From: a virus
Lineage: Duplodnaviria > Heunggongvirae > Uroviricota > Caudoviricetes
Virus record (IMG/VR): IMGVR_UViG_2778260994_000001
Length of the DNA stretch: 64,000 bases
Reading direction: 5' to 3' (one strand)
Below, one piece after another: positions 31,062-31,729 of this stretch; the stretch's first letter is position 1, and each line of letters opens with the position of its first letter. Below the pieces are notes generated by a model. The model was not told where the DNA came from and did not search any database. It saw only the letters and a program-made list of their open reading frames with translations. The position numbers were made by a program, and so were the translations under genes.

Positions 31062-31330
31062 ACTTGCCGGGTACGTCTCCGGCGAGGGCTTCCACCTCCG
31101 TATGCTTTTCGGCGCACCGCGCCCTGGCTGCAATTCGGTAACAGGGGATGCATAACCCTGGCTTCCAGCGTGATTAGCGCTTTCAGCATGACGGGATATA
31201 CCCGTAAATTCGTGGAACTGTACCCAAAGTGCTGTTAAGCACCGCTGTTACGCTGAAAAGAAGACGCAACAGGAAAGGACGCTGACCAACAGATGGCCCC
31301 TTCTCGTTCATCTGGTTAATCACACCAGCG

Positions 31331-31346
31331 CCCTTACCTGTTGTGC
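31331..31346. repeat. 16-bp direct repeat CCCTTACCTGTTGTGC; second copy at 30892-30907
   Basis: Exact 16/16 identity; the two copies bracket the tRNA-Thr/tRNA-Asn pair. Confidence 0.6.
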
Positions 31347-31729
31347 CTCCCCGTTCCCTAATACACAGACGGGGACACTCTGCGGTCGATTTTTTGACGG
31401 GGGACGACTCATACCCCGTGGCGTCTGGCTTCTTAGGCCGCTACCATCATCAGATCATCGTTTGCATTTACTTTAATGGTCAGTTTCTAAAACGCCGCAA
31501 AGTCGCTAACCATGACGAAAACCCTGAAAAAAACGCCCACCCGAAGATGGGCAAACTGGAAGCTCGTAACGCACTTCGGTGTTGCCACTTAGGCGTATGG
31601 TCAACCTGGCAACTCGGCGTCATGAGGGGGAAGGAGTCACTACCCCGCCATACTTGCCGCCGCGCCTGTCGCGGCTAACAGCTAAATCGCTCTATAAATC
31701 ACGATTCATTGAGGCGATATTACACTAAT

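Follow-up and report, generated by a model that had tools for sequence, protein, structure and literature searches.

Operator, promoter and leader upstream of the tRNA genes

The window (the 64-kb stretch of DNA analyzed here) carries genes for tRNA-Asn(GUU) (30986-31061) and tRNA-Thr(UGU) (30908-30983), both on the minus strand and both detected by ARAGORN and Rfam. These two tRNAs (30908..31061) are the first mature products downstream of a leader headed by a C1 operator. The operator at 31730..31746 (minus strand) matches the 17-bp asymmetric query ATTGCTCTAATAAATTT with 0 mismatches and is the Op72a/Obana site of the P1 and P7 annotation. A second site, Op72b/Obanb (31719..31735, plus strand, 2 mismatches), overlaps it in inverted orientation, and P1 and P7 are annotated as having a bivalent operator here. 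At three or fewer mismatches, the 64-kb window holds 10 C1-type sites versus 0.29 expected. Both operator sites overlap a sigma-70 promoter, P1ban (31717..31745, minus strand), whose position was carried over from the P1 annotation. Its hexamers, as read from the sequence, are TTGCTC (31745-31740) and TAATAT (31722-31717), separated by a 17-nt spacer and directed leftward; the transcription start would lie near 31710. P1ban is absent from a generic promoter scan because its -35 hexamer matches at only 3/6 positions, and the same scan returned no promoter-like site between the leader terminator (see below) and the tRNAs.

A sequence-only reading of this region had described a perfect 17-mer set for leftward transcription, followed by about 670 nt of GC-balanced leader. 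Each element of that description is borne out: the minus-strand operator is perfect and overlaps a leftward promoter, the gap at 31062-31729 is 668 nt because tRNA-Asn ends at 31061 and the operator begins at 31730, and leader GC content (0.49-0.57) is similar to that of the flanks.

The operator-leader-tRNA layout is known textbook P1 biology. The window shares 96-100% identity with P1- and P7-like elements, and the ban operon leader of P1 and P7 (AF234172, AF503408) is the same element, 96-99% identical, with the tRNA genes (trnA, trnT) in identical order. In both records the dmt stop codon is followed by the bivalent C1 operator, promoter, dicF-like region, tRNA-Asn and tRNA-Thr, and the annotation names Op72ab/Oban, P1ban, P2ban, a "dicF-like region" and control of the tRNAs and ban. 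From that annotation and the wider P1 literature we assume C1-dependent repression and transcription through the leader to ban; a search of the literature for Op72/Pban matched only unrelated insect PBAN papers. Public annotation of the leader is limited to the 102-nt dicF-like region, leaving a terminator-ended RNA, a tmRNA-like module and a long hairpin unmarked. The operator-controlled leftward transcript proposed from the sequence is supported, as the same arrangement is annotated in P1 and P7; what that reading overlooked was the prior description in P1, the intrinsic terminator and the tmRNA-like element.

Coding potential of the leader

The longest open reading frame (ORF) in the leader encodes 111 aa on the opposite (plus) strand, and NCBI PGAP calls part of it as a hypothetical protein (WP_164997290.1) in the identical plasmid pSA186_4. 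A small protein, such as this 86-111-aa antisense product or that of a 45-aa sense ORF, could thus be encoded here, an explanation that we consider scarcely credible. Pfam returned no match for any leader ORF. ORF lengths and starts shift among close relatives (111, 82, 134 or 85 aa, or absent), and a search of 5.8 billion proteins with the 111-aa ORF recovered only 17 clusters of 70-168 aa, with ragged ends, 53-97% identity and mostly near-identical members. The sense ORF of 45 aa extends into the tRNA-Asn gene and lacks a Shine-Dalgarno sequence. We rejected the longer ORFs as genes on the basis of the absent Pfam matches, unstable lengths and few protein clusters. The homology check for a conserved protein-coding gene, covering Pfam, the ORFs of relatives and the 5.8 billion proteins, was negative, in keeping with the earlier claim that the stretch before tRNA-Asn holds no convincing ORF. 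The same reading had suggested that the leader may carry regulatory structure or small RNAs, and we find at least three structured RNA modules conserved beyond P1-like phages, two of them with covariation.

A DicF-precursor-like platform with a P1-type payload

The first structured element (31577..31674, minus strand) is a platform of three helices, recognized by covariation and by its homology to sequence upstream of dicF. Of 5426 E. coli genomes, 4441 contain sites with ~82% identity to it; these copies lie between DUF1391 genes and dicB and end ~25 nt before the DicF called by Rfam. Covariation is seen at pairs 26:66 and 75:99; that of the middle hairpin was judged by eye. Qin-type lambdoid prophages encode a 190-nt DicF precursor in their dicBF operon; the stretch shared with it covers ~98 nt of its 5' part, immediately before DicF, and has the same helices.

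Downstream of the platform, a terminator scan, the predicted fold and the position equivalent to DicF point to a P1-type payload (31527..31576, minus strand), the putative body of a small RNA with an intrinsic terminator at its 3' end. The terminator has a GC-rich 8-bp stem (31553-31534), a UUCG loop and a U7 tract (31533-31527). The payload is unchanged in ~20 P1-like variants, and in other genomes DicF or different payloads replace it after the same platform. A short terminator-ended RNA therefore follows the platform in both systems, and lengths correspond: ~184 nt from Pban to the terminator versus 190 nt for the DicF species. The 5' end of the P1 RNA would come from a promoter, whereas that of the DicF precursor is generated when RNase III cuts a longer mRNA. 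Unlike DicF, the P1 payload has no special complementarity to ftsZ and does not belong to the DicF family, membership of which we rejected since Rfam DicF (RF00039; gathering score 48 bits) has no match in 31062-31729 even at E<=10, while prophage DicF controls score 72.5 and 75 bits. Pairing of the payload with the ftsZ translation start region was no better than that of shuffled sequences (79% of shuffles matched or beat it over the full length and 51% in the seed-only comparison), in a crude test in which 17% of shuffles matched even real DicF. Within the 64-kb window, target searches with the payload gave chance-level 9-10-mers only. The DicF locus can be seen as a conserved "platform" with interchangeable small-RNA payloads, one of which P1 would express directly from a repressor-controlled promoter, and the P1 payload offers a defined, inducible system for asking what such prophage small RNAs do.

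The apparent strength of the U7 terminator raises the question of how transcription gets past it to the tRNAs and ban. One explanation is that the leader is mainly an attenuator, its structures controlling the flow from Pban into the downstream tRNA and ban helicase genes, with the released RNAs as by-products that have no function of their own. The terminator does lie ~184 nt after the promoter and ahead of every downstream gene, with no further promoter-like site beyond it, and the DicF terminator likewise precedes dicB in dicBF. Attenuation nevertheless leaves unexplained the conservation of the platform in lambdoid prophages, the coding-like constraint on the tag frame described below, and the occurrence of the tmRNA-like module in D6-like plasmids, which lack the C1 operator, and in virulent phages of the T1-like, N4-like and Vi01-like groups. 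We regard it as an unlikely main function.

A tmRNA-like module

Sub-threshold Rfam matches, a conserved reading frame, covariation and alignment with ssrA identify the next element (31344..31526, minus strand) as a module resembling the mRNA-like domain of tmRNA. Matches to the Rfam tmRNA_permuted and beta_tmRNA models reach 24-34 bits against a gathering score of 47. At 31465-31433, the module contains a tag frame of 10 codons, GCA...UAA, without a start codon and encoding ANDDLMMVAA before the stop. Several features recall tmRNA: the GCA (Ala) resume codon comes after A-rich sequence and AUAAAU, the tag of 10 codons is ANDxxxxxAA-like with a hydrophobic, Ala-rich C-terminus, and the stop codon lies within a hairpin (H5), downstream of which is an H-type pseudoknot whose linker is of the UUACCAA type. 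Positions 81-129 of E. coli ssrA align with the frame in register, and module peptides share with the E. coli tag ANDENYALAA the pattern A-N-D/E...A/V-A. Pseudoknot stem 1 pairs 31418-31414 with 31402-31398, and stem 2 pairs the loop GUCG (31408-31405) with CGAC (31388-31385); a terminal hairpin (31375-31348) completes the module on the same minus strand. The nearest tmRNA form is the two-piece (permuted) tmRNA of beta-proteobacteria and marine phages, in which the linker and pseudoknot are alike. In contrast to tmRNA, the module is only ~180 nt long and has no tRNA-like domain, PK3 or PK4, and apparently no PK1.

Conservation of the tag frame is complete among the 126 pattern matches, which encode 17 peptides in 31 nucleotide versions with no indels. 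Its variation is coding-like: codon-position entropies are 0.79, 0.51 and 1.16 for positions 1, 2 and 3, and several peptides each have four to six synonymous nucleotide versions. An invariant in-frame UAG lies 8 codons upstream of the tag, with no AUG, GUG or UUG between. We rejected conventional translation of an AUG frame that overlaps the tag, as its product varies in length (MQTMI*, MQTKKCIWQ* and others) and it has no Shine-Dalgarno sequence. The RNA structure is likewise maintained. Compensatory changes occur in the H5 outer stem and in both pseudoknot stems, with 88% of cells pairing versus 31-50% when partners are slid, and a covariation level that 0 of 500 shuffles reached. A core of 33 nt shows no change in any of 44 sequence clusters, which come from different phage families. 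At the PK1 position, the sole upstream candidate helix (CUUUG/CAAAG) has no compensatory change and is broken in one subgroup. The loop of the terminal hairpin can pair with E. coli tmRNA over 6-7 nt only and at different sites for the two loop variants; we took this to be chance.

The module is present in 335 GenBank phage records spanning several families and is almost never annotated. Carriers include P1, Vi01/Det7-like, N4/G7C-like and T1-like phages, among them coliphages and phages of Salmonella and Klebsiella, as well as the D6-like plasmids. Among 185,579 bacterial species genomes, only 5 contain it. Neighboring tRNA genes are co-oriented with the module in 158 of 158 cases and lie downstream of it in 148 of the 158; in phage CS01 the module stands alone. 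Literature searches covering P1 and DicF, phage tmRNA-like RNAs and the tag peptides yielded no description of the module, which appears to be new. In hundreds of sequenced phages of E. coli, Salmonella and Klebsiella there is an unannotated half-tmRNA whose conserved frame resembles a degradation tag.

The structural conservation bears on another alternative, namely that the leader is debris acting only as spacing, made up of remnants of dicF loci, tmRNA genes and tRNA islands that travel with mosaic exchange between phages. The leader is indeed a mosaic: modules are exchanged, missing or shortened from one P1-like plasmid to another, and a module copy with a 34-nt deletion lies beside tnpB in an IncY plasmid. 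Drift would nevertheless not maintain an invariant core, compensatory changes in three helices, a tag free of indels across its 31 versions and a tRNA orientation of 158 to 0. We consider debris very improbable.

Search for a tRNA-like partner

ARAGORN detected no tmRNA in the window or in the complete genome of CS01, nor in the 126 extracted loci, for which a less stringent threshold was also applied. None of the Rfam tmRNA families (RF00023, RF01849-51, RF04321) reaches its gathering score, Rfam at gathering thresholds finds no tRNA-like domain in 20 module loci, and the searches turned up no acceptor piece bearing G3:U70 or CCA. Orphan T-loop tRNA-like elements do occur near many module copies, including one at 30820-30904 of the window, and phiEa2809 has a tmRNA-like T-arm and D-loop near its module. 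A specific tRNA-like cassette co-occurs with the module in 20 of the 71 loci that have full flanks. We rejected an obligatory phage-encoded acceptor piece because the ARAGORN and Rfam searches were blank, the cassette is found in those 20 loci only and CS01 has none. The cassette was also rejected, by eye, as a permuted tRNA-like domain, its arm order (hairpin, then T-arm) misfitting a permuted tmRNA, as were flanking long stems that would close the module into a tmRNA-like ring. Other Rfam matches, to mir-465, MIR1094, mir-1271, nuoG, RyhB, AdoCbl-II, CcsR1, Ysr49, Plastid-ycf2 and YrlA, fell far below threshold and represent generic hairpins or tRNAs.

The module might be a real tagging template that enters ribosomes under rescue, either as the coding piece of a split tmRNA, with a separate tRNA-like RNA from phage or host as the acceptor piece, or as an RNA captured on host Ala-tmRNA-SmpB complexes, so that stalled proteins would receive a phage SsrA-like tag. 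Such a role would fit a 10-codon frame of E. coli ssrA length that has no start codon and an invariant UAG upstream, peptides like ANDENYALAA with coding-like variation, the orphan T-loop elements (window, phiEa2809), and the linker and pseudoknot shared with two-piece beta-proteobacterial tmRNA. With no tRNA-like domain in the module or the CS01 genome, and thus no known mechanism to translate the tag, with no acceptor piece and with a tRNA-like partner at a minority of loci, we judge this rather unlikely. To our knowledge, an untethered mRNA-like domain has no precedent in trans-translation; if true, tagging would challenge the need for a covalent or base-pair tether between the coding and tRNA-like domains of tmRNA.

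The same missing domain is what would be expected of a decoy that titrates S1, RNase R or ribosome-bound SmpB and damps trans-translation or non-stop mRNA decay, its tag never being translated. The module keeps the resume-codon context, stop-codon hairpin and pseudoknot, and it can occur alone, as in CS01. Mycobacteriophage DS6A encodes a tmRNA with the tRNA-like domain only, suggested to titrate SmpB (PMC4131195). Both phages would carry just one tmRNA half; DS6A retains the tRNA-like domain, whereas the module here is the opposite half, an mRNA-like domain with pseudoknot. Variation of the tag speaks against a decoy: third codon positions are the most variable and several peptides have synonymous versions, and selection on the peptide therefore fits better than nucleotide mimicry. 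Tags also vary widely among phages of the same hosts. A decoy is possible, though we have limited confidence in it.

Long hairpin and P1-specific stretch

Between the tmRNA-like module and the tRNAs, the predicted fold, stem motifs and a compensatory change define a long hairpin (31263..31346, minus strand) with a ~20-bp stem, CACAACAGGUAAGGGCGCUG / CAGCGUCCUUUCCUGUUGCG. A C-G pair is replaced by U-A among P1-like variants, and covariation of the stem is also seen from phage to phage. In the tRNA islands of other phages, stems of this type flank variable inserts, and the hairpin is possibly an RNase III site. The remaining stretch (31062..31262, minus strand), which runs into tRNA-Asn, is conserved in P1-like elements only, where it is nearly invariant. 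The fold of 31062-31350 has z = -3.6, with 0 of 200 shuffles folding as well; structure in this last third of the leader is predicted from thermodynamics.

Model for the leader RNA

We conclude, with a probability of about 70%, that this stretch forms the 5' untranslated leader of a C1-repressed operon, the ban/tRNA operon of a P1/P7-like phage-plasmid, and that it serves as a polycistronic precursor from which non-coding RNAs are derived. We infer the start site, termination efficiency and processing sites of the leader RNA in the following series of events. In a lysogen, C1 bound to the bivalent operator would cover the -35 and -10 of Pban, as judged by position, with repression itself taken from the P1 annotation. 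Once C1 is inactivated, transcription would begin near the proposed start. Part of the transcripts would end at the intrinsic terminator (31527), giving a ~184-nt RNA composed of the platform and a P1-specific 3' payload, the likely counterpart of the 190-nt DicF species with a non-DicF effector end. Read-through RNA would continue through the tmRNA-like module, the long hairpin, the P1-specific stretch and the two tRNAs (Asn, then Thr) into the remainder of the operon. If dicBF and tRNA operons are a guide, the modules would be separated by RNases III, E and P, with the long hairpin probably acting as a processing site.

The tmRNA-like module is, on this view, an independent RNA under selection, put by phages in front of their tRNA clusters, and it may interfere with, or be used in, host SmpB/tmRNA ribosome rescue; this is the step we prefer and also the least supported. 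Put most generally, a free-standing mRNA-like domain and pseudoknot without a tRNA-like domain would be a new class of phage RNA, one that many virulent and temperate phages of enterobacteria position ahead of their tRNA genes so as to commandeer or block the ribosome rescue of the host and, in the strongest form, to give stalled proteins of host or phage a phage SsrA-like tag by a mechanism new to trans-translation. We offer this tentatively, as a possibility that may well prove wrong. Should the module act on trans-translation, phages would have a widespread, unnoticed route to manipulating ribosome rescue and protein quality control. P1, which has only one copy of the module and a lysogen that can be induced by heat, is an easy genetic test bed.

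Stable structured non-tRNA RNAs of unknown function are co-transcribed and co-processed with the tRNA cluster of phage T4 (species 1 and species 2 RNAs). The likeness to the leader lies in a structured non-coding RNA accompanying phage tRNAs, and we claim no sequence kinship. Past tRNA-Thr, the window follows P7 and D6, with an extra tRNA-Ser and an SPFH lipoprotein, unlike P1.

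Identity, operator and coding content of the leader

The region shares 96-98% nucleotide identity with phages P7 and P1 and 100% with Escherichia coli plasmid pSA186_4, so the window comes from a P1/P7-like phage-plasmid. A 754-aa Dmt/Dam methyltransferase ORF ends at 31737, and genes for tRNA-Asn, tRNA-Thr, tRNA-Ser and tRNA-Ile(CAU) follow the leader (31062-31729) on the minus strand. The perfect C1 operator (31730-31746, minus strand) is overlapped by a second, inverted site with two mismatches (31719-31735), and the window holds far more C1-like sites than expected (10 vs 0.29). 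The sequence-only reading had placed the perfect 17-mer for leftward transcription; the geometry agrees, with a promoter read from the sequence as TTGCTC (31745-31740), a 17-nt spacer and TAATAT (31722-31717), covered by both C1 sites. In the P1 record these features are named Obanab (formerly Op72ab), a bivalent operator, and P1ban, the promoter; the P7 record annotates the operator as controlling the tRNAs and ban. On the strength of record annotation and established knowledge, we take Pban to be repressed by C1, and ban and the tRNAs to depend on Pban. A generic promoter scan found no other promoter on either strand of 30200-32200.

The gap between operator and tRNA-Asn measures 668 nt and its GC content resembles the surroundings, in keeping with the GC-balanced leader of about 670 nt lacking a convincing ORF that had been proposed. 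There is no gene in the leader. The longest ORF, of 111 aa, runs antisense to the operon, no Pfam match was obtained for any of the five ORFs with 45 aa or more, and ORF starts and lengths vary among P1, SJ46-like, D6-like and other relatives. No conserved protein gene emerged by homology from 5.8 billion proteins either: the 111-aa ORF retrieved only 17 clusters (70-168 aa, 53-97% identity), which cover it unevenly and contain no domains, a pattern characteristic of spurious calls where conserved DNA is non-coding. PGAP/RefSeq hypothetical protein WP_164997290.1 (pSA186_4 81259-81519, equal to window 31418-31678, plus strand) is an 86-aa piece of this ORF, antisense to the DicF platform and tmRNA-like module described below. 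The call is probably an artefact, because the antisense ORF has few homologues, most of them near-identical and with uneven lengths.

The suggestion that the leader may carry regulatory structure or small RNAs was a good guess from a real observation, borne out by a terminator-like hairpin and two modules that are conserved and covarying. Op72/Pban, the long leader, a dicF-like region and the tRNAs are already annotated for P1/P7. What is added here is the anatomy of the leader as a chain of mobile RNA modules, one of which, a tmRNA-like mRNA-like domain with a pseudoknot, appears to be new.

A tmRNA-like module in enterobacterial phages

BLAST against GenBank phages demonstrated that 31523-31347, within the tmRNA-like module (31526-31344, minus strand), shares 70-89% identity with unannotated DNA of very different phages. 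The module was found in 335 of 50,697 GenBank phage records, including Ackermannviridae (Det7, Ag3, phiEa2809, Klebsiella and Serratia phages), N4/G7C-like Schitoviridae (ECBP1, EC1-UPM, KP8), Drexlerviridae, other siphoviruses and Aeromonas phages. It contains a frame at 31465-31433 (minus strand), GCA AAC GAU GAU CUG AUG AUG GUA GCG GCC UAA, encoding ANDDLMMVAA and a stop; the peptide resembles ANDENYALAA, the SsrA tag of E. coli. Rfam models tmRNA_permuted and beta_tmRNA gave sub-threshold matches to the window and other phages (24-34 bits vs a gathering score of 47), with alignments that run from the AUAAAU|GCA resume context across the tag into the pseudoknot. When a profile of the module was aligned with E. 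coli ssrA, it matched positions 81-129, and the resume and stop codons fell in register.

A 33-nt core pattern, fixing the first 8 nt of the tag frame and leaving the remainder free to vary, matched at least 120 IMG/VR contigs; the matches listed form 44 clusters at 85% identity. All 126 copies listed have exactly 10 codons before the stop, and together they encode 17 distinct peptides that follow the pattern A-N-D/E-x-x-x-x-x-A/V-A. Entropy at codon positions 1, 2 and 3 is 0.79, 0.51 and 1.16 among 31 nucleotide versions of the tag, and single peptides occur in up to six synonymous versions; the variation is coding-like. An in-frame UAG lies 8 codons upstream of the tag with no AUG, GUG or UUG between, and an overlapping AUG frame is not conserved. 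Among 45 representatives, compensatory changes were observed in the stop-codon hairpin and in both stems of an H-type pseudoknot, where loop and downstream partner covary, for instance, as CCGA/UCGG, CCAG/CUGG, CCAA/UUGG and GUCG/CGAC. Paired cells amount to 88%, vs 31-50% with partners slid 1-3 columns, and 0 of 500 shuffles reached the observed covariation. A proposed helix upstream of the resume codon had no covariation support in this set.

ARAGORN called no tmRNA in the window nor, even at a relaxed threshold, in the 126 loci listed, and Rfam at gathering thresholds found no tRNA-like domain in 20 whole loci. Cronobacter phage CS01 carries the module, but its complete 48-kb genome gave no tRNA, tmRNA or tRNA-like match anywhere; thus, the module can stand alone. 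The P1 layout, with the module before tRNAs, is the rule: of the tRNA genes within 1.5 kb (125 distinct loci among the matches listed), 158/158 lie on the module's strand and 148/158 downstream. A looser pattern recovered only five true copies from 185,579 bacterial species genomes. Four are in Enterobacterales and are P1-like or prophage-like; the fifth, on a P1-like contig in a metagenome-assembled genome labelled Bacillota, is probably contamination. Six other bacterial matches, inside genes, were set aside as chance. The module is a phage element rather than a host tmRNA.

The tmRNA-like RNA would act on the ribosome-rescue pathway, and two readings of how are about equally probable. It may serve as a decoy for factors bound by this region of tmRNA, as favored by a module without a tRNA-like domain and by the solitary CS01 copy. 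Alternatively, the coding-like variation of the frame and the SsrA-like peptides favor a real tagging template, although we know of no mechanism by which an untethered coding domain would serve as one.

Surveys of phage tmRNAs used ARAGORN, BRUCE and Rfam; one reported only mycobacteriophages and Bacillus phage G, and the other two-piece forms mostly in marine phages (PMC4131195; PMC9004378). No mention of the tag peptides was found in the literature searched, which did not extend to the text of the 2004 P1 genome paper. As far as could be checked, the module is widespread in enterobacterial phages, unannotated and undescribed.

Islands carrying the module seem to collect non-coding RNA genes. 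On two IMG/VR contigs other known small RNAs, a Sib antitoxin RNA (L015 1709-1862, 98.6 bits) and an int-alpA RNA (L024 264-330, 43.7 bits), are separated from tmRNA-like modules by a few hundred bases.

The DicF platform and its payload

The P1 record annotates a 102-nt "dicF-like region" within the leader. BLAST of the leader showed that a structured stretch, the platform (31674-31577, minus strand), shares ~82% identity with chromosomal sites in 4,441 of 5,426 complete E. coli genomes. These sites lie in lambdoid prophages between DUF1391 (ydfA-type) genes and dicB, and stop ~25 nt before the Rfam-called DicF. A 190-nt DicF species has its 5' end generated by RNase III, and the 53-nt form is generated by RNase E (PMC10448788); these prophage sites are the 5' part of the 190-nt species. 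Three helices gain support when 65 distinct copies are aligned; two pairs show compensatory U-A to C-G changes, and each of several lineages has rebuilt the central hairpin from its own sequence.

Downstream of the platform, sequences split into canonical DicF, several DicF variants and a P1-type sequence. The window has CACCGAAGUGCGUUACGAGCUUCCAGUUU and then an intrinsic terminator identified by terminator scan and fold (8-bp stem, UUCG loop, U7) that ends at 31527. The Rfam DicF model scores 72-75 bits on prophage copies and has no match to the window payload even at E<=10. Pairing of the payload to the ftsZ start region was not above shuffled controls, and no prominent target was found within the window; the payload would be a base-pairing small RNA acting on some target. 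Taking a start near 31710, Pban to terminator is about 184 nt, from which we infer that P1 would transcribe its equivalent of the 190-nt DicF precursor straight from a promoter under repressor control, sharing the platform but differing in the effector end. Derepression would then release this platform-plus-payload RNA at the terminator.

A putative processing hairpin and tRNA-like cassettes

A long hairpin (31346-31263) folds with a ~20-bp stem, CACAACAGGUAAGGGCGCUG/CAGCGUCCUUUCCUGUUGCG, and shows one compensatory change among P1-like copies. The same stem type brackets variable inserts beside the tmRNA-like module in other phages, with covarying variants such as GGAAAUGGCA/UGCCAUUUCC and GAUAAUUGCA/UGCAAUUAUC. 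The usual substrate of RNase III is a 20-bp RNA helix, and the hairpin is therefore a candidate RNase III processing site. Read-through RNA may be cut here and by RNases E and P, yielding the tmRNA-like RNA and the tRNAs. The following stretch (31262-31062) is conserved in P1-like elements only, with very little variation, and RNA 31350-31062 folds far better than shuffled controls (z = -3.6).

A second long-stem cassette, CACAACAGGUAAGGG...CCCUUACCGUUGUG, lies immediately 3' of tRNA-Thr (30820-30904, minus strand). Its insert resembles a tRNA without an anticodon arm, having an acceptor-like stem with U3-G70, a D-arm-like hairpin and T-loop GGUUCGAAUCC; neither ARAGORN nor Rfam called it. The element occurs in 34 of the 126 listed loci, always on the same strand. 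Erwinia phage phiEa2809 (L006, about 2017-2127) has a stem-bracketed cassette ~500 nt downstream of the tmRNA-like module with GAGUCGAAGGG and GCGGGUUCAACUCCUGC, closely like the E. coli tmRNA D-loop GAUUCGACGGG and T-arm GCGGGUUCAACUCCCGC, and may represent a separate element of tRNA-like-domain type.

Mosaicism among P1-like elements

Comparison of six P1-like elements demonstrated that modules are exchanged as units. Plasmid pEC361_3 lacks a C1 operator, and its platform is followed by another, shorter payload; D6-like plasmids are without the platform and retain the terminator and tmRNA-like module. In IncY plasmid p2017.15.03CC (L128 901-1235), the tmRNA-like module has lost its pseudoknot through a 34-nt deletion, and a downstream hairpin loop carries an insertion. 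The module lies directly after a TnpB-family gene (tnpB); this copy is probably decaying and was probably moved by an IS element. At the position of tRNA-Asn(GUU) (30986-31061), pEC361_3 and a D6-like plasmid have tRNA-Arg(UCU), loop CUUCUAA, with the same acceptor stem, which suggests anticodon-arm replacement or cassette exchange. A 65-nt stretch (30311-30375) shares 97% identity with lambdoid phages HK630 and DN1 and is labelled DE3-derived in DN1, another sign of module exchange.

The ORF-free, RNA-rich island really spans ~1.6 kb (30137-31746), not 0.67 kb, and is ended by the first ORF near 30136. It extends beyond the other tRNAs through tRNA-Ser(UGA) (30400-30486), which is in P7 and D6, absent from P1, and shares ~82% identity with the tRNA-Ser region found in rV5-like phages. 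At 30170-30290 (minus strand) Rfam matches STnc100, a small RNA of Salmonella, below threshold (37.8 bits vs 47, E = 7e-6), and a weaker STnc100 match occurs in the tRNA island of phage ECBP1. Downstream of the island, on the operon strand (minus), are a 78-aa membrane-like ORF (29900-30136) and a 275-aa SPFH-domain lipoprotein ORF (29092-29919). In P1 their place is taken by upl and plp, which lie on the opposite strand, and by tciABC; the region is therefore variable among P1-like phages.
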